A stretch of DNA of 64,000 nucleotides, from the NCBI GenBank assembly GCA_016786595.1, contig JAEUWB010000006.1, positions 50,648-114,647 of the forward strand, given 5' to 3'. This DNA comes from a bacterium. Its GTDB lineage: Bacteria > Bdellovibrionota_C > UBA2361 > SZUA-149 > JAEUWB01. The notes under the pieces are model-generated. The model saw only the letters and a list, made by a program, of their open reading frames with translations. It was not told where the DNA came from and made no database searches. How positions within the stretch are numbered: position 1 is the first letter of the stretch; each line of letters begins with the position of its first letter. Made by a program: the position numbers and the translations under genes. Shown piece after piece: positions 10,318 to 53,140 of the stretch.

Positions 10318-10560
10318 TTTTGAGGCGCATTATTATACCAGTTTGCAAAAAGATTCTGAATAAAATCACGATTTTTGCAAACCGGTATAATAGTTGTGTC
10401 GGAGACGCAACTAGCCAATTAATAGCGTTCCCCTCCATTAAAAACATGCAGATGCAAAGTTCATACATATAGAAGGACTGCGTTTTGCGTTTTGTAGCTC
10501 AGATATGATGTTTGCTACAAAATACGAATATTTACGGGGAAAGCTATAATCTTTTTTGTC
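10318..10560. repeat. Copy A of a ~240-bp two-hairpin intergenic repeat (family 2): 'attataccagtttgcaaaaag...tttttgcaaaccggtataa' and 'cgttcccct...ggggaaagctataat'
   Basis: About 75% identical to 52905..53140; contains two internal inverted repeats. Confidence 0.7.
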
Positions 10561-10643
10561 ATAATCGGCAAGTATGGTTCAAAAAACTCATAAATGTTAG
10601 AAACTTAACAAAAATAACGCATCGATCATTAAGCAATAACTTT

Positions 10644-12488
10644 ATGAAATCTGTCTTTAAACCATCGCCACAAACTAGAGAGTTGATTGTCTTTGCCTTG
10701 CTCAACATGCTGGCTTTGCTGCTTATCGCTCGACGCTACAGTGCTGTTTCTAGTGAGCACACTAAGTTTAGCGCACAAGCGTTTTCATACTTAATGACAG
10801 TCGGGCATTTTTCGACTCTGAGCTTGATTGCTGTATTACCTAGTCTCGCGTTGTCTTCATTGAGGAAGATTCCCGCAGTAATCCCTTGGCTGCTCGCCCT
10901 AGCTTTGTGCTGGTTTTTAGACGTCTTTGTGATCATCGATAGCTACGCATTTCAACTTTTTCGTTTTCACCTCAATGCGGCAGTGCTGGGCATGCTCTTT
11001 GGCGACGCTTCCAGCGAGATTTTTATTTTCTCTGACAAAATGCTTTATAAATCACTACTGATTGTTCTGGCTTTATTAATTACACTACTAAGTTTTATTT
11101 GGCTGGCTCGGAAGATCGCCGCAATGCAATTCCAGCGGGGCACTAGCCGCGGCATTCTGACTTTAATTTGCCTGTCAGCAATTACACATAATTTGTTTTT
11201 TGCTTGGGCCGATGCTGTGGCTTATGCACCAGTGACAATTCAGGCTCAGCTTTATCCGCTTTATCCAGCGTTTACTGCAAGAAAGTTTCTTAAGAAACTG
11301 GGGATTAGCACCGATCTCGGTCAGCAAGATATTGTAATTACGCACACTGAAGGTAATTTACACTACCCATTAAGCCCTCTGATCTGCACGACAAATCCAA
11401 CAAGATTGAATGTGATTTTTATTGTGATTGACGCTTTACGTTTTGACGTAATCAATGAAATTGCAACACCACAAATCAAAGCTTTTTCCAGCCAAACTTC
11501 AAAGTTTACTAATCATTGGAGCGGGGGCAGCGCGACGCGCACAGGAATTTTCAGTATTTTTTATGGTATTCCTGGCACATACTGGCAAGCATTTTTACGT
11601 CACCAACAAAGTCCTGTGCTGATCGATAAATTCCTTGAGCAGGGTTACCAGATGGCAATTTTTGGTAGCGCGCCTTTAAGTAGTCCCGAATTTGACCGCA
11701 CAGTTTTTGCGAAAATTCAAAATTTGCGCCGCCGCTCTAGTGCTAAAACCCCGGATCAGCGCGACCAAGAAATTACTAGAGGTTTTAATAATTTCCTTGA
11801 GACGCGTAATCCAATAGAGCCCTTTATGGGATTTTTGTTTTACGACTCAACGCACTCTTTCGATTTTCCGGAAGATTCGCCGCAGGTCTTTACACCAAGC
11901 ATTACCGACGTTGATTACCTAGATTTAAATCAAGACTTTGACCCGCTTCCGCTTAAAAACCGTTATCTTAACGCTGTGCATTTTGTCGATAGTGAAGTTG
12001 GGAAAGTCTTAAACAAATTACGCGAGAAAAATTTAATTAATAATTCTATTATCTTCATCACCGGTGACCACGGCGAAGAGTTTAATGATACAAAAATGAA
12101 CTTTTGGCGCCACACTGGAAATTTCACTAAATTTCAAACACAAGTGCCCTTGCTGGTAGCCTGGCCAAATCAAGAAATCAAGGAGTATCCGCATTGGAGT
12201 AGTCACTACGACATCGCACCGACGCTTTTAAGCGAACTTTTTCAGTGCACTAATCCGCCGCGAGACTATGCTGTCGGTCACAACCTTTTTAGGCCTGAAA
12301 AAAGAAAATTCATGCTTGTTTCTAACTATGGAAACTCAGGAATTATTGAACCTGACCGACTGACGACGATATTTCAATTCGGCGGAATGCATATTACTGA
12401 CCCGCTAATGCAACCACTTACTGAGGCCGTTTCGCGCTCAGATATTTTGCAGCAGACTTTTGAGCAGCAAAGTAGATTTTACAAGTAG
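10644..12488 (+). CDS. Inner-membrane protein with an N-terminal multi-TM domain and a periplasmic sulfatase / alkaline-phosphatase-superfamily domain (DUF3413 / YejM-like)
   Basis: TM-rich N-terminus, then DALRFD and GDHGEEF metal-site motifs of the AP superfamily. ATG at 10644 is preferred over the listed 10512. Confidence 0.7.
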   Translation: MKSVFKPSPQTRELIVFALLNMLALLLIARRYSAVSSEHTKFSAQAFSYLMTVGHFSTLSLIAVLPSLALSSLRKIPAVIPWLLALALCWFLDVFVIIDSYAFQLFRFHLNAAVLGMLFGDASSEIFIFSDKMLYKSLLIVLALLITLLSFIWLARKIAAMQFQRGTSRGILTLICLSAITHNLFFAWADAVAYAPVTIQAQLYPLYPAFTARKFLKKLGISTDLGQQDIVITHTEGNLHYPLSPLICTTNPTRLNVIFIVIDALRFDVINEIATPQIKAFSSQTSKFTNHWSGGSATRTGIFSIFYGIPGTYWQAFLRHQQSPVLIDKFLEQGYQMAIFGSAPLSSPEFDRTVFAKIQNLRRRSSAKTPDQRDQEITRGFNNFLETRNPIEPFMGFLFYDSTHSFDFPEDSPQVFTPSITDVDYLDLNQDFDPLPLKNRYLNAVHFVDSEVGKVLNKLREKNLINNSIIFITGDHGEEFNDTKMNFWRHTGNFTKFQTQVPLLVAWPNQEIKEYPHWSSHYDIAPTLLSELFQCTNPPRDYAVGHNLFRPEKRKFMLVSNYGNSGIIEPDRLTTIFQFGGMHITDPLMQPLTEAVSRSDILQQTFEQQSRFYK

Positions 12489-12620
12489 GCTAGCGCGCAC
12501 TCACTATCTAGTGTGCAATCAAAGGCCGCGCCGACGACGAAAAAAAAATATCCCTAAAAGGCGGGCAAGGTAGAGGAGGAAATGTGCCTACAAAACCTTG
12601 CCCAGAACGATTATCGGAAA

Positions 12621-13142
12621 TTAGGCTTCAACCCCAACGTCATACTCTTCCATCCCTGCTTCGTGAGCCTGGATTTTTGCGCGAAGTCCTTCAACGAGGG
12701 CATCAATTTGAGCCTTCATATTAGACTCGAGCTCAGGTAGCGCTTGCGCTGCTTCGGCGATTGCCAGGCAATATGCAAGAAAAGCGCTGTGTCCTTCTCT
12801 CTGCCGCTCTCCATACGACGGCGAATGCTCGGCCCCGAGTAGAGCTTGCTGACAGCGCAGATACTCTTTATGCTTTTCAGCAACAGCTTCGGGTAATTCT
12901 TTGCCTGCCAGCAAAGTCGCGCAAATTGCAACCAGAAAGTTAACCGCATTGCGCTTCGAGGCTTGGTTTTCTTTTCGCAGCGCCTCACACTGTTCCTCTA
13001 GTTGTCCTAATTGTTTGTTCGTGAAAGCAAGAAGTTCCGCAAGTCTTATTTTGTCAGTCCAGATGTCAACAATCGCGATCAGAATTGCGAATAACAAAAC
13101 ACCGGATACTACGATCACTAGTAACCATTGCCACCAGTTCAT
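12621..13142 (-). CDS. Hypothetical membrane-anchored coiled-coil protein (173 aa)
   Basis: N-terminal TM helix, then heptad-rich sequence. Confidence 0.45.
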   Translation of the reverse strand: MNWWQWLLVIVVSGVLLFAILIAIVDIWTDKIRLAELLAFTNKQLGQLEEQCEALRKENQASKRNAVNFLVAICATLLAGKELPEAVAEKHKEYLRCQQALLGAEHSPSYGERQREGHSAFLAYCLAIAEAAQALPELESNMKAQIDALVEGLRAKIQAHEAGMEEYDVGVEA

Positions 13143-13339
13143 TATTTACTCCAATGCCCAGGTTGGGCAGCCTAAAGTCGCAAACACACCTTAAGCCACC
13201 TAACTCATGGCACTGGGAACAAAACCTTTAACTTCTCTACCTACCCATAAGTTGATTAGAGCTTGTCTAGATATCATTTCGGGCTTAAAAAATAAAGTCA
13301 TGGCTAGATGACAACCTGCGGCAATGCTAAAAACTAACG

Positions 13340-14395
13340 ATGTTTAAACTACTCTTCACACTTCTCTGGTTAATTGCTCTCCCCTGCATACTCACAGCAA
13401 CCTCCCTCTATGCGCGCATTGGCTGGACAGCAATTGCTTTTATCGGACTTTTTTTTGAAAAATTTTCCAGTCGTATGTTTGGAGCAGTTTGTGTGGCGGC
13501 AGCATTCTATGCAGGTCAAACCATGGTTCCGGCAATGCTCAATGTCGATACTTACCAGCCCAAAGTAAAAGTTGAAGACCGCTTCTTTAACTCACCAAAG
13601 GTCAAGGCACATCCGCTCTTGCCTGTAGCTGAAGCCGAGATCTCTCGTTTAGGTATGCTCTTCAGTCAGCCCTTACTTTTTGGTGGCACGCTGCAGCGCG
13701 GCTTTGATTTATTTTTAAAAACAACTGCTACGTATACAGGGTGCAATCTACAAAATATTTCCAGCCAAGGACTTGTTGAGTTGGTGCAAGATCGTTCTAG
13801 CAAGTTTGAGTACAATCACTACTACGAAATCGTCCCCACAGTAGCGCTGGACCGCTCAAAAGGCATTTTTGTCTTCAACCATGGAGCAATGGGAAATTTC
13901 AAGATTTACACCTGCCTTTTAACCGAATTAGCCGAAGAGTTAAGACAAGTTATTGTGGTGCCGAGCCGCGGAGTTGGGCCATGCGACCCTGAGGCAAGTG
14001 CAGAATTTATTTCTAAAATTGTTGATGCTGCCGCAGATCGTAACGCCATTTCTAGCGACAATCACGTCCTGATGGGTTTATCCAACGGAAATTGTGGTGT
14101 GCTTGCTGCGGCCGATCCTGATTTTTCTCGTGCTCAGTTTGCTCGTTCTAGACTGATTCTTTCTTCGCCTGTTTTACCTAAGCCATTAATTAATAACGTT
14201 AGAAATGCAGAAATCCTTGTTCTAACAGGGGAAGACGATAAGCAAACCGACTTTGAGTATGTTAAGCAAGGCGTTAACGACCTTAAAAAAGCCGGGGCAG
14301 ATGTAACTTTTCATCATTTCCCCAAAGAAGATCATTTCCTGATGCTCTCTAACTGGAGAGAGTTATTGCCCATCATCAAAAATTGGTTGGAATAA
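13340..14395 (+). CDS. Membrane-anchored alpha/beta-hydrolase-fold esterase/peptidase-like protein
   Basis: GLSNG nucleophile elbow, then downstream acidic (GEDD) and His (EDHF) residues in catalytic-triad order; two N-terminal TM helices. Confidence 0.5.
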   Translation: MFKLLFTLLWLIALPCILTATSLYARIGWTAIAFIGLFFEKFSSRMFGAVCVAAAFYAGQTMVPAMLNVDTYQPKVKVEDRFFNSPKVKAHPLLPVAEAEISRLGMLFSQPLLFGGTLQRGFDLFLKTTATYTGCNLQNISSQGLVELVQDRSSKFEYNHYYEIVPTVALDRSKGIFVFNHGAMGNFKIYTCLLTELAEELRQVIVVPSRGVGPCDPEASAEFISKIVDAAADRNAISSDNHVLMGLSNGNCGVLAAADPDFSRAQFARSRLILSSPVLPKPLINNVRNAEILVLTGEDDKQTDFEYVKQGVNDLKKAGADVTFHHFPKEDHFLMLSNWRELLPIIKNWLE

Positions 14396-14500
14396 GCAAG
14401 AAAGAAGAAATTTATAAATCTCAAAAAAATACTGCAAAAAAAATGCTGCGGGAAATGCTGTGAAAAAAGTAATGTAAAAAAAGTGCTGTGAGAAAGTTAT

Positions 14501-14531
14501 CTGGGGCAGTTACGACTGTAGACTGCCCCAG
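14501..14531. terminator. Perfect 10-bp stem hairpin 'ctggggcagt-tacgactgtag-actgccccag' between convergent genes (candidate bidirectional terminator)
   Basis: Read directly; it follows a phased A-tract / TGCTG repeat region at 14425..14497. Confidence 0.5.
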
Positions 14532-14546
14532 ATGATGTGTTAACGC

Positions 14547-15536
14547 TTACTTTCCCCGACCGACTTCCATGCGAACAAACAAGACAAGCCTGTCTCCGGG
14601 AGGCACCGCCCAAGGGCCGCCTACAAGTTCGTCTCCGAAATGCCTGTTGAGCCAGAAGGCGTTAGCCGGGCCAGTGCAAAGCTCGACAGCGATTCGCTGA
14701 GGATCGCCGTTGTAGACATGTGCAACTGGAACAGGCCTGCGTTTGGCCGAATCGAGTTTTTGACCAGGACCGACAAGTCCGACCCACGCCTTCATCAGGA
14801 CTGAAAACGTGCAATAATCGACAACCACAGGCTTCTTGGTCAGATCTACGTTGAACGAATGATCTAGTGTTCCAACTTCAGCAAAATGCGGGAACCAGGT
14901 AACCGGATTTTCGATAGCTTGAGCTAGGCGCTTTGACAAGGGGATACTCCCCTCATAACCGTATACTCCCGTAAGCGGCATCCGAATTTCTGGGCGATAT
15001 TGAGACTTGATCCGAAGATCAATCCCCCCGCGGCTGAAAGATGGGTGCCAAGCTGGTGCGTACCACCCGAGTTCATTGCCGATGTTTTCGATTTCTAGCG
15101 TCGCATAGAGGAAGTGACCACGCACTTCGTAGGTAACGGTGTAAACCGCTCGAAACGGATAGTGCGCGGTTTCGCGCATCTCGTGCCGCATCTGAACTAC
15201 GGATGGAGTTTGGCTAACAATCTCCCACTCGTAGTCGATCGCCGATCCGTGAAGGGCGTGAACATCTCCATGAGAGAGCCTGTAATCGGTTCCATCTGGG
15301 GCAGGCAGTACGCCGCCTTCTTGTCTGCCGAAAAACTCGCAGCAAAAATGAGCTCCGGCATTGCGAGCAGTCGGGTCAAACTCAAAAGCATTTCCCGGCT
15401 GAATCACAGGGTCACCAAAGCCTGGCCGATGAAGAGAAACAAGAGCAGCCCCAAGCGGGCTGATTTTAACGTCGAGACCCGGCTTAAGCGGGTTTTGCTC
15501 TCCTAGCGTGAGGAGTCGCGGTGTGATTGATACCAT
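14547..15536 (-). CDS. Hypothetical protein, possibly an aldose-1-epimerase (galactose mutarotase)-like fold
   Basis: 329 aa. Family call is tentative, from HG...H motifs and overall composition. Confidence 0.4.
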   Translation of the reverse strand: MVSITPRLLTLGEQNPLKPGLDVKISPLGAALVSLHRPGFGDPVIQPGNAFEFDPTARNAGAHFCCEFFGRQEGGVLPAPDGTDYRLSHGDVHALHGSAIDYEWEIVSQTPSVVQMRHEMRETAHYPFRAVYTVTYEVRGHFLYATLEIENIGNELGWYAPAWHPSFSRGGIDLRIKSQYRPEIRMPLTGVYGYEGSIPLSKRLAQAIENPVTWFPHFAEVGTLDHSFNVDLTKKPVVVDYCTFSVLMKAWVGLVGPGQKLDSAKRRPVPVAHVYNGDPQRIAVELCTGPANAFWLNRHFGDELVGGPWAVPPGDRLVLFVRMEVGRGK

Positions 15537-15786
15537 CGTGGTTAACTTTGACTCAGTGATTTGAGTCGAGAAAGCTTATCTCTCGACTCAAATCTAACTT
15601 AAATCTACGGCTAAAATTTGGAATCAAATAAAACCTTAAAATTTCTTCTTTCTCGCTAAAGTAGTTAGCGAGAAATTAAAGACTTCTACGAAAAATTAAA
15701 TGTCAAAGAACAAAAATGCAGGATACATAAATCCCAAGAAAATGAGAAGCGCGGAGCTTCTCTGAAGAACCTGAAACGACGAGATG

Positions 15787-16104
15787 CTAGCCCGGGTTTC
15801 CACCTCCAGCAAGAGATGTTCCAAAAAAGGCCTGCAAAATAGCATCAACAACAAGTGTGACGCGCCCGCGGAGATCACCTCCGTTTTCGTCAGCCAAAAT
15901 GGCAGAATCAACTCGCCATCGAGCTTCTCCAACTCGGCCGTTCCTGATCGCATACTGAGCGCTCCCGTATCGAATCACGATGCAGTCATGTGCTTGTGGA
16001 TGCGAATCTTCATGAGCAGTAACTTCGAGGTGACCAGCAAAGTCTTCCTTAAGTTCGTTGACGCAATCGATGACTTCTTTTACAAGTGCTACACACCTAG
16101 ACAT
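15787..16104 (-). CDS. Small hypothetical protein (105 aa) with a strong RBS and a C-terminal Gly-rich tail (...SLAGGGNPG)
   Basis: GGAGG lies 7 nt upstream of the ATG. The antisense ORF 15784..16218 is judged spurious. Confidence 0.5.
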   Translation of the reverse strand: MSRCVALVKEVIDCVNELKEDFAGHLEVTAHEDSHPQAHDCIVIRYGSAQYAIRNGRVGEARWRVDSAILADENGGDLRGRVTLVVDAILQAFFGTSLAGGGNPG

Positions 16105-16391
16105 TTTTTTCCTCCTGGAGCCGCTTGGCCCGCTTACTTGGAAGAATTATTTCCAACTAAGCAGGTCAAGACCGATCGAGAGGAGCCGATAAAAAACCGT
16201 TCTAGCTCCGCGCTTTAGCCGGCGAATTTAGGATTACGCCGATAAAACGAGCTAGAGTTACTTCTACCCCTGATTACTTTTCATTCCAGATAAGGTCAGT
16301 GATTATATAGGAAAATCAGCGGATTTCAAGCCGCTTATGGTACGGGGTTACTTTTTCTCAAATTCCCCACAAAAACACCTTGGATTTTAAC

Positions 16392-16940
16392 TCAGTTCTG
16401 AAAATAAACTGCGTAGAAAACGACCCAGAAAATGCAGAATACTAGCGTCTGGTGCTGGACAGAAGCGTATGGACTAAGAAAATTAGAAACTATCCTAGAT
16501 ACAAAAACACTCAAAATAAACCTAACAAACCTAGCCGGGACACTAACCAATAAAAACAGCAGCAAATCTAAAGGCCCCTGATGCAGAGCTCCGATATTTA
16601 CAGCGTAAATTTTATAGGGCACCCCGGAAAATGCTCCCTGAAGGAGTGAAAAATATCCGAGTTCTGCAATTTGTACCTGCACTAACTGGATTAACTTAAA
16701 ATCAATTGCAGGAATATTGCTCAGCAGATTAAAGGCCAAAGACTCGTCGTAAAATCCAAAGCCATACATCAGAACTCCACCGAAAGTAGCAAAGAGCGCG
16801 GCAATAAAACTTAATTTTAGTGCCAGTCTTAAATCCCTGAGTGCAACGAAACTCAGCAAAATGTCTGGCACAAGAAAAAATAGCGTCGCTTCACCAAAAC
16901 CCCAGAACGCTGCCAAATAAAAAATAGGATTTATTGTCAT
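16392..16940 (-). CDS. Small integral membrane protein (DedA/YqaA-like?), last gene of a phospholipid-synthesis operon
   Basis: 182 aa with 4-5 TM helices; its start overlaps the plsC stop. Confidence 0.5.
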   Translation of the reverse strand: MTINPIFYLAAFWGFGEATLFFLVPDILLSFVALRDLRLALKLSFIAALFATFGGVLMYGFGFYDESLAFNLLSNIPAIDFKLIQLVQVQIAELGYFSLLQGAFSGVPYKIYAVNIGALHQGPLDLLLFLLVSVPARFVRFILSVFVSRIVSNFLSPYASVQHQTLVFCIFWVVFYAVYFQN

Positions 16941-17572: not shown

Positions 17573-17573
17573 G

Positions 17574-18512: not shown

Positions 18513-18524
18513 TAACGGTCCCTT

Positions 18525-20344: not shown

Positions 20345-20499
20345 AGCTAGAGTCAGTAAAATTTTTATGCTGAATTATGGAAGCTCCGATGAAGAGAACT
20401 TCCTTAAGTCCATAGATTCCCCTAGATAGAGCGCCCGCGCAAGTAGATTAAAACATTCTAGTCCTACAATCTAGCATAGAAAACTCAACTACACCTAAA

Positions 20500-21893: not shown

Positions 21894-21937
21894 TTCCTTT
21901 TCGCTTTATTTAGAACACGTCAGGGAAGTTTTGATTA

Positions 21938-22052
21938 TGTTCGAGGTTGAGACGAGTTCGAGGAACGGGAATTGCGAGCAGCAGAGTTTATTGTAATAAA
22001 TGAGCAGCGCAGCAATGTCCCGTTCTGAAGAAATCGGCCAAGATCGGACATA
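21938..22052. repeat. MITE-like structured repeat (family 3), copy 1, inserted between lemA and its TPM partner genes
   Basis: Shares 'tttattgtaataaatgagcagcgcagcaat' and 'aatcggccaagatcggac' with copies at 23372 and 28411. Confidence 0.7.
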
Positions 22053-22064
22053 AGCAGAGCTTCC

Positions 22065-23092: not shown

Positions 23093-23101
23093 AATACCTA
23101 C

Positions 23102-23350: not shown

Positions 23351-23371
23351 GTGCCCAAATAAATACATATC

Positions 23372-23470
23372 CGTTGAGGTTCAACAAAAATCTCCCGCGA
23401 CGACTTGTCCGCCGTAGTCGGCGAAACTGCGTAGGCGGAAGAAATTTGGCCAAGAACGGACTTAAATACT
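23372..23470. repeat. MITE-like structured repeat (family 3), copy 2 (right-half variant), abutting the 3' end of sucD
   Basis: 'cgacttgtccgccgtagtcggcgaaactgcgtaggcggaagaaatttggccaagaacggac' matches 28508..28562. Confidence 0.7.
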
Positions 23471-24342: not shown

Positions 24343-24348
24343 TTTCTT

Positions 24349-25515
24349 TTATCCTTTCGCAACCTCAGCAACAATCTTCTTTGCCGCATCCGCCATATCG
24401 TCAGCTGGAATGATTTTTAATCCTGAATCAGCAAGCATTTTTTTGCCAATATCAACGTTTGTACCCTTGAGGCGCACTACCAGTGGAACTTTAATCGAGA
24501 GTTCCTTGGCCGCTTCAATAATACCCCCGGCAATTACATCGCAGCGCATAATGCCGCCAAAAATATTGACTAAAATGCCTTTGACACTTGAGTCGCTAAG
24601 AATCAGCTTAAAAGCTTCGGTCACCATTTCCTTAGTTGCACCACCACCGACATCGAGGAAGTTAGCTGGTGAACCGCCAGCCTGCTTGATGATGTCCATG
24701 GTTGCCATCGCTAAGCCTGCGCCATTTACCATACAACCGATGTTGCCATCTAAAGCGATATAGTTAATGCCTAGTTCGCCGGCGCGGATTTCACGCTCAT
24801 CGATTTCATCATAATCGAGGCGATCAAAGCCATCCTTTTGGCGATACAAAGCGTTATCGTCGAGTGCCATTTTAGCATCAAGACAAATGAAATTTCCTTC
24901 CGTAGTTTCAATCAAGGGATTAATTTCTAGCATCGAACAATCAAGCTCGAGAAATGCACGATAGAGGTTTTTTACAACCGGCGTTAATTTCTTTTGCAAA
25001 TCCTTATCAAGCTTTAAGAACTGACCAATCGAGCGGATATGGAAATCCTGTAGGCCCGTTTCGGGAAGCACGTTCACTGTCAAAACTTTTTCTGGATTTT
25101 TGTGGGCGATTTCCTCAATCTCCATTCCGCCTTCGGCGCTGATGATAAATGAAACACAAGTACTTTCACGGTTCATAATCAAACTGAGATAAAACTCACG
25201 TTTGATATCCGAAGCTTTTTCGACCCAAACCTTGCGCACTAAGCGACCTTGTGGACCAGTTTGTGGAGAGACTAGAGTCATGCCGATAATTTTTTCACCT
25301 AAACTGAAAGCCTCGTTAGGAGTTTTGGCAAGTTTAACACCGCCACCCTTTCCACGACCACCAGCGTGAATTTGGGCTTTGACCACAGTCAGTCCGCCAC
25401 CTAAATTAACCGCCGCCTTTTTAACTTCTCGCGGCGTATAACAAAGAAATCCTGGATTAACTGGTAATCCAAATTTTCCTAAAAAATCCTTGGCTTGATA
25501 CTCATGTAAATTCAT
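24349..25515 (-). CDS. sucC: Succinyl-CoA synthetase beta subunit
   Basis: [11 protein letters not shown]... ATP-grasp N-terminus; adjacent to sucD. Confidence 0.95.
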
Positions 25516-25538
25516 TGATTAGTACCTTAATTAATCAC

Positions 25539-28311: not shown

Positions 28312-28410
28312 GGTTTATACCTCGTTATCTAAGTTAACAGATTGCCGCGGTCGCATGAAATAAAATTTCATGCTCCCTCGCAATGACTGACGGCCCCGTT
28401 CGCCATCTCT

Positions 28411-28576
28411 GAATACGGTTGAGATTGAGTCGATGTCGAGGAACGGACCTTAATACAGAGCAAGAAGCGCGCTTTATTGTAATAAATGAGCAGCGCAGCA
28501 ATCTCCCTGACGACTTGTGCGCCGTAGTCGGCAAAGCCGCATAGGCGGAAGAGATCGGCCAATCTCGGCCGTATTC
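28411..28576. repeat. MITE-like structured repeat (family 3), full-length copy 3 with 17-bp terminal inverted repeats 'gaatacggttgagattg' / 'caatctcggccgtattc'
   Basis: Contains both halves found separately in copies 1 and 2. Confidence 0.75.
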
Positions 28577-40180: not shown

Positions 40181-40203
40181 GGCGTATCTGAAAACGCGAT
40201 TTG

Positions 40204-40284
40204 GCTTAGGCTTGAACTTATACTTCCCCTTAAGCTTTTTTAAAAAAGGTTAAGGGAAAGGGAAAGGGAAAGTTCAAGCCTAAG
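40204..40284. repeat. REP-like palindromic element (copy 3): 'gcttaggcttgaactta ... ggttaagggaaagggaaagggaaag ... ttcaagcctaag'
   Basis: Read directly. Confidence 0.75.
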
Positions 40285-40298
40285 TTTGAAAAAAACAA

Positions 40299-41867: not shown

Positions 41868-41880
41868 TGCTATTAGAGAA

Positions 41881-41986
41881 TCTTGAACTTTGGCTTGAGC
41901 TTGAGCTTACCTCTATTCCCATAAAATAACCAATAGATTTTGTTACTCAGATTAAGGTAAAGGATAAGCTTATATTCAAGTTCAAG
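41881..41986. repeat. REP-like palindromic element (copy 4, degenerate left arm) in the divergent mcm / acyl-CoA carboxyltransferase intergenic region
   Basis: 'tcttgaactttggcttgagcttgagctta ... aagttcaagcctaagcc'. Confidence 0.6.
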
Positions 41987-42037
41987 CCTAAGCCTATCAG
42001 CACAACACGCTTGAATGCTATATCGCTGAGATAAGAA

Positions 42038-43576: not shown

Positions 43577-43678
43577 CATTAAATTGTTAATTGCTTAATC
43601 GTCTCTGCGAAACAGCCTTTACTACAGATTTATGAGGGGCTATACCCTTTGATCATCGATTATTACGACAGGAGAAAA

Positions 43679-44974: not shown

Positions 44975-45123
44975 TTCTCGAAAGCGCTGAACCAAACTTT
45001 GATTTTCGAAAGACTTACTGAGCTAGTTGAATTAAAAGCTGAGTCAGAGATCTTAGAAAAACTCAGAAAAATATTTAATAAAATTCATGATTAACGATTG
45101 CGCCAATAAAAAAGGAGATTGCT

Positions 45124-45726: not shown

Positions 45727-45736
45727 GCGTAGTTTA

Positions 45737-45801
45737 AGCTTAGGCTTGAACTTCCCCTTCCGTCTTCCTAGGATAAGTAAAAGTCTAAGTTCAAGCCTAA
45801 G
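45737..45801. repeat. REP-like palindromic element (copy 5): 'gcttaggcttgaactt-cccctt...-aagttcaagcctaag'
   Basis: Read directly; lies between convergent genes. Confidence 0.8.
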
Positions 45802-45820
45802 TAAATAGCTGATAATCTGC

Positions 45821-46972
45821 TTACGACCCCTTCGGCAGTCCAAGCACGCGCTCGGCGATAATCCCACGCTGAATTTCAGAAGTGCCCGCGGCAATGGTTC
45901 GTCCCCGCGAATAGAGATAGCGGTGCTCCGCGCTTAAGGCTTGATCCCCAATCCCTAGCACACCAGCTGAGCCGAGAATTTCTAGTGCAAATTTTGAAAT
46001 CTCTTGAAAGTTTTCACTCCAGAAAAGCTTATCCAGAGACCCCTCAGGCCCTGGATTTTTCCCGGAAGAATATTCCACTAAGTGACTTAGCGCCAGGGTG
46101 CGCACAGCCATATTGTTAGCAATCAAGCGACCGAGGCGGTCAAGTTCAAGCGCTGTCGCTCCACGGGCGTTCAACACTTCTACAATCTCTGCTAAAGCTT
46201 TTTCTGATTGCAGGTGCCGCGCGAAAGTCAAAATTACGCGCTCATACATTAAAGTCGATATTGCGATTTTCCAGCCATCGCCGGGCTTTCCCACAATCAT
46301 CTCACCAGGCACTTTAACATCTTCAAAGAAAACTTCATTAAACTCTTGGTCACCTGAAATCTGTGTAAGTGGGCGCACGCTAATGCCTGGTGTTTTCATG
46401 TCAACCAAGAAATAGGTCAGCCCTTTGTGTTTCGGAACTGTTTGATCGCTACGCGCTAAGACAAAACAAAACTGTGCATACTGAGCAAAACTCGTCCAAA
46501 CTTTTTGTCCTGAAATCGACCAATTTGAACCCTGCTGGACTGCCTGCGTTTTGAGTGAAGCTAAGTCACTGCCAGCCTGAGGTTCACTAAAGCCTTGGCA
46601 CCAGATTTCTTCAGCTAAGAGAATTTTCTGTAAAAATCTCTGTTGCTGCTCGGCCGACCCATGCTCAATTAATACCGGGCCAACCATGGTTAGGCCGAAA
46701 AGATTAATCAGCTGCGGGGCATCAGCCTTACCCAGCTCTTCTTGAATTACAGCCTCTTCGACTAAACTTAATCCGCGTCCGCCATATTGCTCAGGCCAGT
46801 GCACTGCGACCCAACGTGCCTCGGCTAATTTACGTTGCCAAGCGCGAGAGACTTCAACAAATTCCGAAAGATCTGCGTGCTGACTTAAAGCTGGAGGTCG
46901 GTTACTTTTTAACCAAGTTTTAATTTCGCTGCGGATTTTTTCAGCGCGATCGCTTAAAGTAATTTCAATCAT
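45821..46972 (-). CDS. Acyl-CoA dehydrogenase family protein
   Basis: ACAD middle and C-terminal domain pattern; ATG at 46972 preferred because the longer ORF overlaps zwf. Confidence 0.8.
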   Translation of the reverse strand: MIEITLSDRAEKIRSEIKTWLKSNRPPALSQHADLSEFVEVSRAWQRKLAEARWVAVHWPEQYGGRGLSLVEEAVIQEELGKADAPQLINLFGLTMVGPVLIEHGSAEQQQRFLQKILLAEEIWCQGFSEPQAGSDLASLKTQAVQQGSNWSISGQKVWTSFAQYAQFCFVLARSDQTVPKHKGLTYFLVDMKTPGISVRPLTQISGDQEFNEVFFEDVKVPGEMIVGKPGDGWKIAISTLMYERVILTFARHLQSEKALAEIVEVLNARGATALELDRLGRLIANNMAVRTLALSHLVEYSSGKNPGPEGSLDKLFWSENFQEISKFALEILGSAGVLGIGDQALSAEHRYLYSRGRTIAAGTSEIQRGIIAERVLGLPKGS

Positions 46973-46982
46973 ACTTCTACTC

Positions 46983-48503
46983 TTAAGATTTATACCAGCC
47001 ACGCCCAATACGACGTAGCAAAAGTTCATCGGCCATACTCGGTCCAGCACTACCAGCTTCATAACCGTAAACAGGTGGCATGCGTAGTTTACTTGTTTTC
47101 CAAGCTTCAAGAATTGGTGCTACTACCGCCCAAGCCTGCTCAATTTCGTCGTTACGAGTAAATAGTGTCGGGTCTCCCTTCATCGCATCAAGTAGGAGGC
47201 GCTCATAGGCTTCAGGTGGTTCCACTCCAAATGATTTTCCATAACTAAATTCCATGTCCACGCCCTGCAGCTTGACACTCGGTCCTGGAGGTTTACAGTT
47301 AACACGAAGAAAAATCCCCTCATCTGGCTGAATTTGGAAGGTGAGCACATTTGAAGCTACTTGATCGATACCAAACTTTTCAAAAAATAAGTGTGGCGCT
47401 TCGCGAAAAAAAACAGAAATTTCTGTGACCCTTTCACTCAAGCGCTTGCCAGCTCGCAGGTAAAACGGCACGCCGTTCCAACGCCAATTATCAATTGCAA
47501 ATTCAATGCCGACGTAGGTTTCAGTTTCTGATTTTTTATCAACTCCGGCTTCTCCGAGATATCCCGCTACAGCTTCATTACCAATTTTGCCGGCGAGATA
47601 ACGCCCCCGCACAACTTTATTGGCTACATCTTCCGGCGAAAATTTACGAATCGATCTTAAGACTTTAACCTTTTCATCACGCACTGCGTTAGCTTCAAAG
47701 CTCACTGGTGGTTCAAGCGCCACTAAGCAAAGTAGCTGCAAAGCATGGTTTTGCACCATATCACGTAAGATTCCGGATTTATCGAAGTAGCCCGCACGCG
47801 TGCCGACGCCAATTGTTTCCGCAACTGTAATCTCTACATGGCTCACATATTTATGATTCCAGAGCGGCTCAAAAATACCGTTGGCGAAGCGGAATACTAA
47901 AATATTTTGCACCGTTTCTTTGCCAAGGTAATGATCGATGCGGTAGATTTGTTCTTCGCGCATCGCATTCAGCAGCTCTTGGTTCAGTTTTTTTGCCGAT
48001 TCCAAATCATGGCCAAAAGGCTTTTCTACAATCACACGTGACTGCTTCCAGGCATCTGGATTTGTAGCGATAGCTTCGCCGCTCAAGAGTCCAACTTCCG
48101 ATAAATACTTCGCTGCAGGGCCAAAAAACTCAGGTGCAGTTGCTAAATAAAAAACAACGTCACGTGAAGTCGACCCAAACTGAGTCAAGGCCTGACGCAG
48201 TTTCTCGTAGCTTTCCTTGGCACCGAGATCCCCAGAAACGTAGGCAATCTTACTGGTAAATTTGCTCCAAAGCGCTGGATCAATTGGTCGGCGGCGCGAA
48301 TATGTATCAACAGCCTCACGTAAGAATTCAATAAATTCTTCGCGAGTAAATTCTCTTCGAGAAAAACCAACTAAAGCAAAATCGTCGGGCAAGAGACCGT
48401 CGAGTGCCAGATTGTAAAGCGCCGGCACGAGTTTACGTTGCGCCAAATCGCCAGTTGCACCAGCAATCACTAAAGTTGTGGGACTGACTGTTTTGGGCTG
48501 CAT
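46983..48503 (-). CDS. zwf: Glucose-6-phosphate 1-dehydrogenase
   Basis: AGATGDLA NADP-binding motif and the DHYLGKE active-site region. Confidence 0.95.
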   Translation of the reverse strand: MQPKTVSPTTLVIAGATGDLAQRKLVPALYNLALDGLLPDDFALVGFSRREFTREEFIEFLREAVDTYSRRRPIDPALWSKFTSKIAYVSGDLGAKESYEKLRQALTQFGSTSRDVVFYLATAPEFFGPAAKYLSEVGLLSGEAIATNPDAWKQSRVIVEKPFGHDLESAKKLNQELLNAMREEQIYRIDHYLGKETVQNILVFRFANGIFEPLWNHKYVSHVEITVAETIGVGTRAGYFDKSGILRDMVQNHALQLLCLVALEPPVSFEANAVRDEKVKVLRSIRKFSPEDVANKVVRGRYLAGKIGNEAVAGYLGEAGVDKKSETETYVGIEFAIDNWRWNGVPFYLRAGKRLSERVTEISVFFREAPHLFFEKFGIDQVASNVLTFQIQPDEGIFLRVNCKPPGPSVKLQGVDMEFSYGKSFGVEPPEAYERLLLDAMKGDPTLFTRNDEIEQAWAVVAPILEAWKTSKLRMPPVYGYEAGSAGPSMADELLLRRIGRGWYKS

Positions 48504-48527
48504 GCTGTTTTTCCTGATTTTTCAAGG

Positions 48528-49433
48528 CTACTGATCGGCACCGGACTTTACCGCATGTCCGCCAAATTGCTTACGTAAAATTGCCAGCACACGGTCAGAA
48601 AAGGTGTTTTCACGACGCGAGCGAAAGCGATTCATTAAGGACATTGTAATCACGGGAGTTGGAACGCTGAGCCGAATCCCTTCCTCAACTGTCCAGCGCC
48701 CTTCCCCAGAATCTTCAACAAAACCCTTGACCGTTTCCAGTCGTGGGTCGCTCTTAAAGGCATCGCCGAGTAATTCAAGCAACCATGAACGCACCACACT
48801 GCCATGCTGCCAGAGTCCTGCAACCTTTCCGAGATCAAGATTGAATTGACTTTCCTTTAAAAGCTCAAAGCCTTCGGCATAAGCCTGCATCAAGCCATAC
48901 TCAATGCCGTTGTGGATCATTTTCGTATAGTGCCCTGCTCCACTTGCACCGACATGCAAAAGCCCGCCTTCCTGAGCCAAACTCTTAAACGCAGGTTCAA
49001 CTTGGGCATAGGCTTCCTTTTCTCCGCCAACCATCAAGCAATAGCCTTTTTCTAAACCCCAAATTCCGCCACTGGTCCCAACATCAAGCATTTGCATGCC
49101 GTAGCGTGCCACCTTTTGCGCGCGTAAAACGCTATCTGAGTAACGACTATTTCCGCCATCAATTAAAATATCTCCGGCAGCACAAAGTGGCACGATATCG
49201 TTAATCATCTCGTCGACAATTTTCCCTGCAGGAACCATCAGCCAAATCACGCGTGGCGCGCTCAATTTGGAAACTAAATCTTCCAAAGAATTAGCAGCAG
49301 TCATGCCTTCTTTAGCCAGTACGGCACTGACCTCACTTGAGACATCAAAACCAACAACTTGGTGTCCTGCCTTAATCAAGCGGCGCGTCATATTGCCGCC
49401 CATTTTCCCTAAACCGATAAATCCAATTTGCAT
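48528..49433 (-). CDS. gnd: 6-phosphogluconate dehydrogenase (decarboxylating), short ~300-aa form
   Basis: GFIGLGKMG Rossmann motif; 6PGD C-domain. Confidence 0.85.
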   Translation of the reverse strand: MQIGFIGLGKMGGNMTRRLIKAGHQVVGFDVSSEVSAVLAKEGMTAANSLEDLVSKLSAPRVIWLMVPAGKIVDEMINDIVPLCAAGDILIDGGNSRYSDSVLRAQKVARYGMQMLDVGTSGGIWGLEKGYCLMVGGEKEAYAQVEPAFKSLAQEGGLLHVGASGAGHYTKMIHNGIEYGLMQAYAEGFELLKESQFNLDLGKVAGLWQHGSVVRSWLLELLGDAFKSDPRLETVKGFVEDSGEGRWTVEEGIRLSVPTPVITMSLMNRFRSRRENTFSDRVLAILRKQFGGHAVKSGADQ

Positions 49434-49436
49434 AAA

Positions 49437-50543
49437 TTATAAACTAGCCATTTTATTGTTGATTGTTGTGTTCAATGAATGAAAAGAATCGCTAAAAAGC
49501 TTTACGCCCTCGACCTGCAATTTTGTTAATAAGGGTGCTACCTCGACGCCAACTTCCTTAAGTAGCGCAGGGAAGTCTGAAACTTCCGAGAGCTCTTGCT
49601 CGATTGTAGCAGCAACTTTCCCGTGGTCGATGAAAGCTTTTAAGGTCGCAAGTGGCATGGTGTTAACCGTGTCTTGGCCAATTAACTGATCTACGTAAAG
49701 CGTATCTGGATATGCTGGATTTTTAGTGCCGGTCGATGCCCAGAGTGGTCGCTGGACCGCAGCCCCTTTTGCACTGAGTGCAGAAAATTCTTTTGCTGTG
49801 AAAAGCTTCTGATATTCAGCGTAGGCAGCACGAGAATTATAAACACCAAATTTACCCTTAAGCTCAGCCGCTTGAGGAAACTTCAGCGCGGCAGTATCAA
49901 GCGCTGCATCGACAATCGTATCAACACGGCTCACAAAGAAACTCGCAACGGAACGAATTGAATCGATCGGAAGTCCTTTAGCTGCACGTTCAGTCAACGC
50001 CGCAATGTAAGTTTTAGCCACGGCAACGTAATTTTCAACCGAGAATAGTAGAGTTACGTTAACGTTAATCCCGTCAAGCAAAAGTGCTTTGATTGCCGGA
50101 ATTCCTTCAGATGTTCCAGGCACTTTAATCATAATGTTAGGGCGACCCAGTTCTTTGAATAAACGCTTACCTTCTGTAATCGTTCCGGCCGTATCAGTCG
50201 CCAGTAATGGTGAAACTTCAATACTGACAAATCCGTCAGTGCCGTGGGTGCGTTCAAAAACAGGCAAGAAAAAATCAGCGGCTCGACCGACATCTTCAAC
50301 CGCAAGTCGTTCGAAGGCCTGTGCGGAATTTAAGCCTTGCGACTTAGCAGTTTTGATTGTCGCGTCATAAAGGGCGCTTGAGCTAATTGCCTTGTCAAAA
50401 ATTGTTGGGTTTGAGGTCATCCCCAAAATTCCCCACTCGTCGATCATTTTCTTGAGTTCGCCAGTCTCGAGCATGTCGCGGCTGAGATTATCGTACCAGA
50501 CACTTTGTCCGAGTTTGTGTAATTGTTTGAGCTTATCTGACAT
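49437..50543 (-). CDS. tal: Transaldolase
   Basis: ...VWYDNLSR...TSNPTIF transaldolase motifs. Confidence 0.9.
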   Translation of the reverse strand: MSDKLKQLHKLGQSVWYDNLSRDMLETGELKKMIDEWGILGMTSNPTIFDKAISSSALYDATIKTAKSQGLNSAQAFERLAVEDVGRAADFFLPVFERTHGTDGFVSIEVSPLLATDTAGTITEGKRLFKELGRPNIMIKVPGTSEGIPAIKALLLDGINVNVTLLFSVENYVAVAKTYIAALTERAAKGLPIDSIRSVASFFVSRVDTIVDAALDTAALKFPQAAELKGKFGVYNSRAAYAEYQKLFTAKEFSALSAKGAAVQRPLWASTGTKNPAYPDTLYVDQLIGQDTVNTMPLATLKAFIDHGKVAATIEQELSEVSDFPALLKEVGVEVAPLLTKLQVEGVKLFSDSFHSLNTTINNKMASL

Positions 50544-50555
50544 GTAACCGTATCC

Positions 50556-50667
50556 TTTGGCTTGAACTTATCTTTAACCTTCTGAATGAATGAAGGATAA
50601 AGAACTACAAGAGTTTAGGACAAGGATCAGGATCAGGTAAAGGGCAAGAGCAAGTTCAAGTGCAAGG
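50556..50667. repeat. REP-like palindromic element (copy 6, long-loop variant)
   Basis: 'ggcttgaactta ... aagttcaagtgcaagg' arms around a ~80-nt insert. Confidence 0.6.
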
Positions 50668-50674
50668 CACGAAC

Positions 50675-50836
50675 TTACTTATTCTCGTCTTTCTTTTGGT
50701 CTTTTTCCATTTCACGCAGTAATTCAATCGACTGCTTGATTAGACCAAGCTCAAAAGCCATCGAAGATGGGCCAAAACGATTAGTAAATGTTGGACGACG
50801 CTTTCTTTTGCGGCGGTTGGATTTCAGAGTTTCCAC
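50675..50836 (-). CDS. Possible small basic protein (53 aa, GTG start; VETLKSNRRKRKRRPTFTNRFGPSSMAFELGLIKQSIELLREMEKDQKKDENK)
   Basis: Below the 60-aa cutoff of the ORF track; found by manual translation; weak RBS. Confidence 0.2.
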   Translation of the reverse strand: METLKSNRRKRKRRPTFTNRFGPSSMAFELGLIKQSIELLREMEKDQKKDENK

Positions 50837-51027
50837 TGTCAATTCCCTGCTTACTAGTTCTACTACTTATTTGATGCCTAAACCACAGACCGGCATTCAA
50901 GTTTTTTGTTAAAACCAATATCTCTAATTAACAACCTACACCATTTATGCTACGAGTTGTGAAAAGTGTAACCTCTTATTTTTACATTATTTTTTGATTT
51001 TTAAGGTCAATAATTTCAAATACTTAC

Positions 51028-52830
51028 ATGAAGCAAGAAAACACCCTCAAAACTAGACAGGATCAGCTCGATTCAGACACATGGGATGCGTCCTCAATTT
51101 ATAAAAATATTGAAGCCTGGGAAAAGGATTTTAATGAAATTGCGGCCAAGCTACCGCTACTCGAGCAGGCCAAGGGCAAAATCAAAGTTTCTGCAAAATC
51201 CTGCCGAGAGGTTTTAGACCTCTTCTACGAGACCTATCGCAAAGCAGAACTTGTTTATACTTACACCAAGTGCTTGATCGACGTTGATACGACAAACCAA
51301 GCATCCTCGGCCTTAAGCCAACGTGCCATGCAGCTCTTTACGAGAATTAGCGCGGCAACAAGTTTCCTTAGACCTGAAATCATGGATTTGCCTGAGGCAA
51401 CAGCTCAGTCTTACCTCGAAGACAAAAGCTTGGAATCTTACCAACGAGTCCTGGCTGAGATCTTACGTTTTCGTCCGCATGTATTAACCGACAAGGAAGA
51501 GAAACTTTTAGCCCTCGGCAGCGAAGCCTTGAGCGGAGCAGAACGAATTTTTTCAAAATTGACAAACGCCGATTTTGATTTCGGGACAATTGCTTGGCAA
51601 GGTCAAGCGCTGCCGCTCTCGCATTCCACATTTTCTTTGTATTTAAAAGATCAAAATCAAGAATTAAGAAAACTTGCGCATCAAAGCTATTATGGCGTTT
51701 ATCGCGCGCACGAGAATTCAATTACCGAAATGCTTGTAGCCTCGATTGAACGTGACGTTTTTCATGCTCGTGCCAGGAATTACTCTTCTGCCCGCGAAGC
51801 TTCGCTCTTTAGCGACAATATCAAGCCAGAAGTTTATGATAATTTAGTTACTTCAGTTTCGACCGGAATTGCCTGCTTACATCGCTACTATCAATTCCGT
51901 AAGCAAACGCTCGGGCTCAAAACGCAAAATATTTATGACACCTACGTGCCAATTGTCGAAAAAGTCGAAACCAATATCGCTTTTGATGAGGGCATTGAGA
52001 TTCTGCTGAGCGCTTTAAGGCCTTTAGGCGAAGATTATGTCTCGGTCTTGTCGACAGGCTTGAAAGAAGCGCGTTGGTGCGACCGTTACGAGAATAAAGG
52101 AAAAATTAGCGGAGCCTATTCAGGCGGCTGCCACGACACCTATCCCTTTATTTTAATGAATTATAAAGCCACTGACATCCGTGATTTGTTTACGCTGGCA
52201 CATGAAGCCGGTCACTCAATGCATTCCTACTATGCCCGAAAAAATCAAGCATATCAGGATAGCGATTACACAATTTTTGTAGCTGAAGTCGCTTCGACCT
52301 TCAATGAGCAGTTACTCTTTAGGGAGCTAAAAAAACGCTACGCCCACAAACCTGAGATGCTCAAGTTTCTCACTAACCAGCAAATTGACGACATCAAGGC
52401 GACTTTCTTTAGGCAAACAATGTTTGCCGAATTTGAGCGCGATACGCACGCGACCATGGAACGGCATGAACCATTAACGCTTGAGGTGTTACGCAAGATT
52501 TATCGCAAGTTACTTGAGAAATATTTTGGTCCGAGTGTGACAATTTCGGAGTTAGACGAGCTTGAATTTTTACGCATCCCGCACTTTTATCATGCCTTTT
52601 ATGTCTACAAATATGCGACGGGAATTTCTGCGGCGATTGCGCTTTCGCAAAAAGTCATGCAAGGCGATGTTGTAGCGCGTGATCGCTACCTAAGTTTCCT
52701 TAAAACTGGTGGAGCAAAATATCCGCTAGAAGTGCTGAGTGAAGCTGGTGTAGATATGACTAAGTCTGACGCTGTAAATGCCACGATTGCTCGCTTTGAT
52801 GAGCTCTTGATCGAGCTAGAAAGCAGCTAA
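51028..52830 (+). CDS. pepF: Oligoendopeptidase F (M3B family zinc metallopeptidase)
   Basis: HEAGHSMH zinc-binding HExxH motif; 600 aa. Confidence 0.85.
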   Translation: MKQENTLKTRQDQLDSDTWDASSIYKNIEAWEKDFNEIAAKLPLLEQAKGKIKVSAKSCREVLDLFYETYRKAELVYTYTKCLIDVDTTNQASSALSQRAMQLFTRISAATSFLRPEIMDLPEATAQSYLEDKSLESYQRVLAEILRFRPHVLTDKEEKLLALGSEALSGAERIFSKLTNADFDFGTIAWQGQALPLSHSTFSLYLKDQNQELRKLAHQSYYGVYRAHENSITEMLVASIERDVFHARARNYSSAREASLFSDNIKPEVYDNLVTSVSTGIACLHRYYQFRKQTLGLKTQNIYDTYVPIVEKVETNIAFDEGIEILLSALRPLGEDYVSVLSTGLKEARWCDRYENKGKISGAYSGGCHDTYPFILMNYKATDIRDLFTLAHEAGHSMHSYYARKNQAYQDSDYTIFVAEVASTFNEQLLFRELKKRYAHKPEMLKFLTNQQIDDIKATFFRQTMFAEFERDTHATMERHEPLTLEVLRKIYRKLLEKYFGPSVTISELDELEFLRIPHFYHAFYVYKYATGISAAIALSQKVMQGDVVARDRYLSFLKTGGAKYPLEVLSEAGVDMTKSDAVNATIARFDELLIELESS

Positions 52831-52904
52831 CTGACAGTTTGAGCTAAGTGGAATGATCTGTTGACTTAGTTATTCACCCGTCATTGCGAACGAAGTAAAG
52901 CAAT

Positions 52905-53140
52905 CTGTTCACCGATATATTATACCAGTTTGCAAAAAGATTTTGGATCAAACACAGGGTTTTTGCAAACTGGTATATAAGTTGTGTCGTAGACGCAACC
53001 AGCCAACAAATCGCGTTTCCCCTTTATAAACAAGCCCGTGCAAAGCTTATGCACTCAAAGGCAATGTTTTTTATAACTCAGCTGCGTTTGCTATATATTC
53101 AAAATATTTAGGGGAAACGCTATAATATTTTTTCGTAATC
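52905..53140. repeat. Copy B of the ~240-bp two-hairpin repeat (family 2)
   Basis: Aligns with 10318..10560; flanked by the inverted 'gtcattgcga' / 'tcgcaatgac' sequences at 52876 and 53180. Confidence 0.7.

Follow-up and report, generated by a model that had tools for sequence, protein, structure and literature searches.

A structured intergenic element present twice in 64 kb of a Bdellovibrionota_C genome may be a dispersed repeat with outward-facing promoters

A 64,000-nucleotide stretch of DNA from an uncultured, predatory-type bacterium of the Bdellovibrionota_C (assembly GCA_016786595.1, contig JAEUWB010000006.1), called the window throughout, contains two diverged copies of an element of about 225–232 bp. 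Copy A lies between ndk and a divergently transcribed DUF3413/sulfatase gene, and copy B between two convergent genes, 42.6 kb away and in the same orientation. The reading preferred here, tentatively and at a little less than even confidence, is that the element is a lineage-specific, non-coding dispersed intergenic repeat resembling a MITE (miniature inverted-repeat transposable element), or a mobile promoter module. The conserved ends, the almost saturated core, the lack of coding potential, the synteny break at copy A, the split palindrome at copy B and the repeat-rich spacers are together best explained by a dispersed repeat. Several other small intergenic repeat families are present in this genome, which indicates that repeat invasion of spacers is general here.

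Self-BLAST of the window aligned 10331–10557 with 52918–53133 on the same strand over 228 columns at 74.6% identity (E = 1.1e-31), the strongest non-tandem repeat pair within the 64 kb. A first-pass annotation of this DNA, made from the sequence alone, had matched 10318–10560 with 52905–53140 over their whole length at about 75% identity. Indeed, MAFFT aligns these two segments throughout and the degree of similarity holds, but the limits do not: the first 13 nt are unrelated, and the homology extends from ~10331/52918 to ~10562/53139. The four shared strings quoted at that stage are all present in both copies. The concern voiced with them, that the resemblance might amount to a generic AT-rich promoter-like segment, is answered by the E value of 1e-31 and by diagnostic 19- and 20-mers confined to both loci. 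With up to three mismatches allowed, the 19-mer TATACCAGTTTGCAAAAAG has four sites in the window, one in each arm of the palindrome P1 (described below) of A and B, against 0.01 expected; the 20-mer AGTTGTGTCGKAGACGCAAC has two sites, in A and B only, against 0.00 expected by chance. A search with nhmmer --max and an A+B profile revealed no third copy in the window, nor did a covariance model built on the left 111 nt and run with filters off. The homologous spans are as follows.

10331–10562, plus strand: copy A, whole homologous span (alignment and BLAST against copy B; nhmmer profile match 10325–10567)
52918–53139, plus strand: copy B, whole homologous span (alignment, BLAST and nhmmer profile)

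The sequence of copy B is identical in an independent Logan assembly and unchanged across three independent samples, which possibly represent one population, and the short ENA/Logan contigs of both loci are all identical to the window. Contigs from ENA ERZ15185498 and Logan SRR10547829 (L142, ending at 52942, and L144, ending at 52965) both stop inside P1 of copy B, unlike those over copy A, which read through. These contig ends could reflect low coverage or an effect of the hairpin, or could hint at further copies that tangle the assembly graph.

Along the plus strand from 5′ to 3′, the parts of the element are the palindrome P1, a short hairpin (P2), a conserved linker, a core and a right end. 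A long-range stem (P3) encloses the variable core.

10331–10392: P1 palindrome of copy A, arms 10331–10351 and 10372–10392 (21 nt, 95% complementary), 20-nt spacer
52918–52980: P1 palindrome of copy B, arms 52921–52938 and 52960–52977 (18 nt, 100% complementary), 21-nt spacer
10393–10411: P2 hairpin of copy A, GTTGTGTC-gga-GACGCAAC
52981–52999: P2 hairpin of copy B, GTTGTGTC-gta-GACGCAAC
10422–10547: P3 stem of copy A, arms 10422–10433 (ATAGCGTTCCCC) and 10536–10547 (GGGGAAAGCTAT)
53010–53123: P3 stem of copy B, arms 53010–53022 (ATCGCGTTTCCCC) and 53111–53123 (GGGGAAACGCTAT)

Each arm of P1 (TATTATACCAGTTTGCAAAAA / TTTTTGCAAACYGGTATAATA) contains the 8-bp palindrome TTTGCAAA. P2, located 3 nt after P1, is an 8-bp hairpin of the form GTTGTGTC-gNa-GACGCAAC and is followed by the conserved linker AGCCAA...GCGTTYCCCC. 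The core of ~90 nt is poorly conserved, yet retains a 5-bp GCAAA/TTTGC pair, and the right end takes the form AATATTTA-GGGGAAA-GCTATAAT-N-TTTTTT. In P3, GCGTTYCCCC pairs with GGGGAAASGC through arms of 12–13 nt that stand 102 nt (A) and 88 nt (B) apart, with one mismatch in each copy. Relative to A, copy B has an extra T in the 5′ arm and a C in the 3′ arm; a T-A pair is added and the G·A mismatch of A is repaired to G-C, differences that would amount to a modest compensatory signal. In this comparison of two sequences, compensated change is seen in P3 only, the arms of P1 and P2 being invariant. Two internal inverted repeats per copy had been reported at first pass; inverted repeats do exist, but the count was low, with at least three conserved (P1, P2 and P3) in addition to the GCAAA/TTTGC pair.

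Fold z-scores against shuffled sequences, given for the two strands, are −6.1 and −5.9 for A and −6.5 and −5.6 for B. Since both strands fold equally well, the signal is that of inverted repeats in DNA and does not reveal whether one strand or the other acts as RNA. The non-Watson-Crick pairs also disagree on the strand, the T·G pair of P2 fitting the plus strand only and the A·C pair in P1 of copy A the minus strand only.

Conservation between the copies is mosaic. Identity is 83% in the left block (88/106) and 84% in the right block (31/37), and falls to 56% in the core (51/91). Within the left block, the P1 arms are identical at 18/18 and 17/18 positions (94–100%; 35/36 together) and P2 at 18/19 (95%), while the P1 spacer retains 14/21 (67%). 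The unevenness is significant, both for the longest identical run of 25 nt (permutation p = 0.008) and for the summed squared run lengths (p = 0.005). Conserved ends with a diverged core are the pattern expected if the ends are the functional parts.

The element does not code for protein. Six-frame translation gave no open reading frame (ORF) common to A and B in frame, as the P1 spacer contains a frame-shifting indel of 1 nt and further indels measure 2, 3 and 7 nt. A protein-coding or type-I toxin reading was rejected, as its frames are not common to A and B. A spurious 75-aa minus-strand ORF over the element matched only itself, and a 70-aa plus-frame ORF of copy B had no match in 1.84 billion representatives; the missing relatives of these peptides are weak evidence against a wide distribution of the element.

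The conserved ends carry outward-facing -10 boxes of the sigma-70 type in both copies, and these may act as promoters, judging from the following consensus matches.

10332–10360, minus strand: ndk-facing promoter-like site of copy A, TTCAGA-17-TATAAT with TG extension and TGGTATAAT at 10340–10332; consensus match only
52919–52947, minus strand: left-end box of copy B, TCCAAA-17-TGGTATAAT, facing the pepF 3′ end
10545–10557, plus strand: right-end box of copy A, TATAAT at 10545–10550 and a run of six T residues (T6) at 10552–10557, 87–94 nt upstream of where the DUF3413 gene starts (10644); weak -35, TACGAA
53098–53133, plus strand: right-end promoter-like site of copy B, TTCAAA-17-TATAAT at 53098–53126 and T6 at 53128–53133

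A TATAAT-like box near the 3′ end had already been noticed at first pass and is present in both copies; at their 5′ ends, both additionally bear TGGTATAAT on the other strand. The string TGNTATAAT occurs three times in the 64 kb, two of these occurrences being the left end of each copy. Transcription from the ndk-facing site is predicted to start at ~10325, which would give ndk (ATG at 10298) a leader of 27 nt that contains AAGGAAGG. In a consensus scan, this TTCAGA-17-TGgTATAAT inside P1 was the sole promoter-like site in the 345-bp ndk/DUF3413 spacer. A sigma-54 reading of TGGTAT-N5-TTGTG was considered and set aside: the spacing is right, but the GC at -12 is GT in both copies, and P1 lies too near for an enhancer.

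The surroundings of copy A bear on what such a promoter might do. Copy A occupies ~232 of the 345 nt between ndk (9888–10298, minus strand) and the DUF3413/sulfatase (YejM-like) gene (10644–12488, plus strand), as expected from its earlier placement in a divergent promoter region. Two relatives have the operon mdh-sucC-sucD-ndk-rlmN, with ndk in fourth place and starting 30–40 nt after sucD. In the window, mdh-sucC-sucD (26537–23470) and ndk-rlmN (10298–8590) are on the same strand with ~13 kb between sucD and ndk. Copy A sits exactly at the ndk-side junction of this lineage-specific synteny break, and ndk-rlmN is without its ancestral operon promoter in this lineage. The sucD-ndk interval holds the DUF3413 gene, cdsA, a CDP-alcohol transferase gene, TPM and LemA genes and others, and a repeat module (23389–23453) lies directly downstream of sucD. 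On the other side of ndk, the rlmN-ndk spacer is repeat-filled and 212 nt long, compared with 12–50 nt in relatives.

The best named relatives of RlmN, 59–66% identical, come from metagenome-assembled genomes of Bdellovibrionota, Bdellovibrionales and Oligoflexia, and the closest DUF3413 homologue is 45% identical. In a relative, the DUF3413 gene has an upstream spacer of 66 nt and different neighbours. This short spacer, together with relatives that lack the spacer altogether, indicates that the element is not a conserved leader of ndk or of the DUF3413 gene, and neither nhmmer nor the covariance model found an orthologous element at the loci of relatives. The idea that the element is a DUF3413 riboswitch or leader was rejected on the grounds of that 66-nt spacer and of copy B, which has no gene downstream.

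Copy B is found between the pepF stop (52830, plus strand) and the stop of a 246-aa ORF (53332, minus strand), the convergent 3′ region to which the first-pass annotation had assigned it. Two terminator hairpins on the minus strand belong to the 246-aa ORF itself. The bracketing of copy B by gtcattgcga and tcgcaatgac was also correctly seen at that stage; it forms an outer 10-bp inverted repeat (GTCATTGCGA / TCGCAATGAC), and an inner 19-nt inverted repeat (52898–52916 / 53138–53156, 18/19) abuts the element within 5 nt on each side. In silico removal of 52917–53137 yields a 38-bp palindrome within a larger hairpin of −26 kcal/mol (DNA parameters). The arms of this palindrome belong to a small unit that is seen three times.

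52880–52916, plus strand: left flanking unit of copy B, GTCATTGCGA-N8-AAGCAATCTGTTCACCGAT, left arm of the outer palindrome
53138–53182, minus strand: right flanking unit of copy B, inverted, GTCATTGCGA-N16-AAGCAATCTGTTCACTGAT
28333–28387, minus strand: third, solitary unit of the flanking type, GTCATTGCGA-N31-GCAATCTGTTAAC

The unit reads GTCATTGCGA-N(8–31)-(A)GCAATCTGTT(C/A)AC with a variable middle, or in short form GTCATTGCGA-N-AAGCAATCTGTTCAC, and in all three cases it follows a gene 3′ end in the same relative orientation. The solitary unit identifies the flanks of copy B as members of a distinct family of small repeats. Most simply, copy B would have inserted at the centre of an inverted doublet of this unit.

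If the element is a dispersed repeat with promoter-bearing ends, it would act at the level of DNA. Its conserved ends would present outward -10 boxes, TGGTATAAT on the minus strand within P1 at the left and GCTATAAT followed by T6 on the plus strand at the right, and the module would start transcription into both flanks wherever it had landed. In this scenario, ndk-rlmN would have parted from the ancestral mdh-sucCD operon first, and copy A would then have been co-opted as a divergent promoter of ndk-rlmN on the left and probably of the DUF3413/yejM-like gene on the right. Copy B, inserted at the centre of the palindromic doublet between convergent genes, would yield only non-coding or antisense transcripts there. 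Spread may have occurred by non-autonomous transposition or by recombination, and the P1 and P2 hairpins may serve as protein-binding sites.

Among known systems, MITEAba12 offers a close parallel. It carries outward promoters in both orientations, and elements of its type can activate neighbouring genes (PMC6382973). The present element resembles it in being small, non-coding (with stops in all common frames), intergenic and strongly folded, with sigma-70-like boxes facing outward at both ends. In contrast, MITEAba12 has 113 bp, clear terminal inverted repeats matching a resident insertion sequence (IS) and 9-bp target duplications (PMC6382973), whereas the element has about 225 bp, no target duplication, imperfect terminal inverted repeats that are significant in B only, a long subterminal palindrome accompanied by a second hairpin, two copies seen and no known parent IS.

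Homologous promoter-bearing sequence beside non-homologous genes within one genome is the hallmark of putative mobile promoters, among which two-member families are the commonest, at 68% (Matus-Garcia et al., 2012; PMC3488235), and the element shares this arrangement. They are defined by at least 50 nt at 80% identity or more; the left block reaches 83%, and the right block 84% over its 37 columns. The definition also places each copy upstream of a non-homologous coding sequence. Copy A conforms to this, but copy B lies between convergent gene ends, downstream of both neighbours, and the element is longer and more structured than the 50–100 nt typical of that collection (PMC3488235).

The flanks of copy B recall a doublet of repetitive extragenic palindromic (REP) sequences (REPINs, PMC3116915), with two inverted hairpin-forming units of ~40–55 nt that also occur singly elsewhere. 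REP and REPIN sequences are built from imperfect palindromes of 20–40 nt; the flanking units, which form a family other than that of the element, fit this loosely, and the 225-bp element greatly exceeds a REP in length and complexity. The flanking units seen number three, and no RAYT gene was found, though no search aimed at one was made. Copy B sits at the centre of the doublet, as do elements that target REPs, and here too it would have arrived by insertion.

Comparable small elements with outward promoters include the Correia/NEMIS elements of Neisseria, and IS1397/ISKpn1 and IS110-family elements target REPs. Palindrome-associated transposable elements (PATEs) derived from IS200/IS605 have similar imperfect subterminal hairpins at both ends; here the left end has both P1 and P2, and the right end has no conserved local hairpin. 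Readings as attC, dif or IS200/IS605 ends were discarded because the motifs do not fit on inspection.

Several observations weigh against a dispersed repeat. The element is short and non-coding as a MITE should be (about 225–232 bp, under a limit of about 600 bp), but it is not filed as one because target-site duplications are lacking, terminal inverted repeats are significant in B only and there is no known parent IS. Specifically, the end segments of B match in inverted orientation at 23/32 positions (p < 0.0005), the best score in A has p = 0.12, and on the right side the homology runs ~12 nt beyond the inverted end segment. Direct reading found no target-site duplication around A or B, the repeat flanking B being inverted and not direct. 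Among the window ORFs scanned there is no transposase, and no related IS end was found, although no IS database was searched. The 64-kb window shows two copies. The promoter calls are consensus matches from a scan that yields no more than it does in shuffled sequence, and the right-end -35 of copy A (TACGAA) is poor. A P3 stem with partly compensatory differences is not required by a model of promoters and terminal repeats. Finally, the units flanking copy B may each be the 3′ region of one convergent gene and not the halves of a split doublet.

The explanation that comes nearest, unlikely but by no means far-fetched, takes A and B to be paralogous (sibling) small RNA (sRNA) genes. P1 would then be a symmetrical regulatory region with two TTTGCAAA operators and divergent -10 boxes, a rightward promoter in its 3′ arm would give an RNA of ~160 nt that runs from P2 through the P3-closed domain to T6, and the conserved 5′ part (P2, AGCCAA and GCGTTYCCC) would be the functional or seed region. 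Sibling sRNAs with conserved regulated promoters are exemplified by Qrr1-4, PrrF1/2 and OmrA/B. The element resembles such pairs in its two paralogous intergenic loci, its near-identical upstream palindrome, its conserved 5′ part and 3′ end and its divergent middle, and the locations, one divergent and one convergent spacer, are typical of sRNA genes. P3 is kept in both copies, partly compensated in B, with the T6 run 4 nt past the stem, and fold z-scores reach −5.5 to −6.5. An sRNA gene, or more broadly a regulated cassette with a bidirectional promoter, accounts better than a dispersed repeat for P3 and T6, and fits the strict conservation of the TTTGCAAA-bearing arms and the local excess of GCAAA. 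Clustering of TTTGCAAA also counts for the sRNA reading: five of the six palindromes in the window are at the two loci, the remaining one being at 24993.

Several features of an sRNA gene are nevertheless lacking. No terminator-like site was found on the plus strand at either locus, and P3, which is separated from the T run, closes a loop of ~100 nt. There is no common promoter upstream of P1 for a full-length transcript, and the rightward -10 in the 3′ arm of P1 (CGGTATAAT in A, TGGTATATA in B) is accompanied by -35 matches of 2–3/6 and a predicted start that cuts into P2. The equal folding of the strands and the conflict among their non-Watson-Crick pairs give no strand preference, and in the relatives examined no homologue was found. 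An Rfam search had been recommended at first pass, and no curated family emerged from it: the whole window gave no match at the gathering score, and at E ≤ 10 the two loci gave only chance matches of microRNA or snoRNA type on the P1 hairpin (E ≥ 0.016), far under the gathering scores.

A quite unlikely alternative is that A and B are regulatory DNA for one transcription factor with a small regulon, copied by recombination, in which the TTTGCAAA palindromes, 32–33 bp apart (three helical turns), are operators. P1 arms held in sequence (35/36) without covariation fit recognition by a protein better than a purely structural constraint, and in the outward promoter-like sites the TTTGCAAA palindromes fall between -35 and -10. 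The density of GCAAA/TGCAAA peaks at the same two loci, at 7–8 per 300 nt compared with a mean of 1.5 in the window. A third TTTGCAAA lies near copy B (53189–53196, ~55 nt past the right end), with GCAAA motifs also at 53201 and 53230. Against this, TTTGCAAA is not enriched in the window as a whole (6 observed, 5.35 expected). A set of operators would, moreover, leave copy B with no gene to regulate, because both neighbours converge on it, and would leave P2, P3 and the split palindrome around B unexplained; no candidate regulator has been identified.

It is very unlikely that the pair is simply a neutral relic, in which a single intergenic region underwent segmental duplication long ago and the likeness is now decaying, without present function at B. 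Two known copies, an almost saturated core (56%) and the position of B where no gene needs it would suit such a relic, but uniform decay does not give the observed mosaic (p about 0.005–0.008), in which an identical stretch of 25 nt, almost perfect arms of P1 and P2 and both intact -10 boxes stand beside a core at roughly background identity, and the constancy of copy B across the three samples, which may be one population, also speaks against it. A and B as attL/attR-like borders of an integrated 42-kb element are effectively refuted: despite their common orientation and 42.6-kb separation, the flat GC content (0.41–0.48) and core-gene interior (mdh, sucCD, citrate synthase, G6PD, 6PGD, transaldolase, methylmalonyl-CoA mutase, an AcrB pump and cdsA) show that they are not island borders, the interior ORFs scanned include no integrase or transposase, and the repeats are about 73% identical without an identical common core.

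Searches in wider collections did not extend the family. Phage and plasmid collections gave no match to A or B (distant blastn), and pattern scans of IMG/VR for P1 and P2 gave 0 matches. In a collection of species-representative genomes that does not include this genome, the 19-mer had 13 single matches in unrelated taxa; these have nothing in common beyond ~25 nt and are therefore regarded as chance matches. The metagenome pattern GTTTGCAAAAA-N-TTTTTGCAAAC was uninformative, as none of the at least 120 loci listed was element-like and an unrelated high-copy repeat dominated them. This very high-copy repeat (...ctctggtGTTTGCAAAAAATGCAGGAATACTGGTGGTATGTCGAGGCTTTTTGCAAACgcccagagcgcaaggag...) of the marine and sediment metagenomes Ga0164313 and Ga0209344 occurs at loci L017, L019, L020, L025 and dozens more, in both orientations and sometimes twice per contig.

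The spacers of the window hold other repeats. Hexamer-periodic palindromic repeats (CTTAGGCTTGAACTT... / ...AAGTTCAAGCCTAAG) are present at seven or more intergenic spots, mostly at gene 3′ ends (6736–6880, 9736–9790, 40195–40287, 41888–41995, 45734–45804, 50555–50681 and 57426–57581), and probably correspond to the first repeat family of the first-pass annotation. A 142-bp unit is duplicated in tandem (58524–58643 / 58666–58785, 97% identical) within a palindromic region of ~270 nt (58524–58793), and a 44-nt relative of it occurs at 9850–9893 in the rlmN-ndk spacer. Two further modules, 21932–22021 with 28410–28507 and 23389–23453 with 28500–28562, show 77% and 85% identity; they are adjacent at 28.4–28.56 kb and separate elsewhere, which indicates a mosaic repeat structure of the spacers. 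A Thg1-like gene (57586–58332; tRNA-His guanylyltransferase family, uncommon in bacteria) adjoins rplM-rpsI.

As to whether the element is a MITE or a duplicated sRNA gene, the choice offered at first pass, both readings survive and neither is established. It is unlikely that the element is something new, whether a non-autonomous mobile module without classical terminal inverted repeats or target duplications that inserts at the centre of REP-like doublets and delivers a bidirectional, possibly regulated promoter, or a sibling sRNA pair under a common palindromic operator. It corresponds to no curated family of RNAs and to no known mobile element, and is most likely an ordinary lineage-specific intergenic repeat with promoter-bearing ends.

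The interest of the pair is modest and comes from two points: expression of ndk-rlmN was apparently rescued after its operon had been disrupted, and copy B would have inserted at the centre of a palindrome. If the reading as a dispersed repeat is true, ndk-rlmN would be a small case of operon rewiring, with the two genes placed behind a repeat module that holds their sole recognisable promoter. Such a case would change no general principle, but would add an example, from a barely studied phylum, of dispersed repeats serving as portable promoters.

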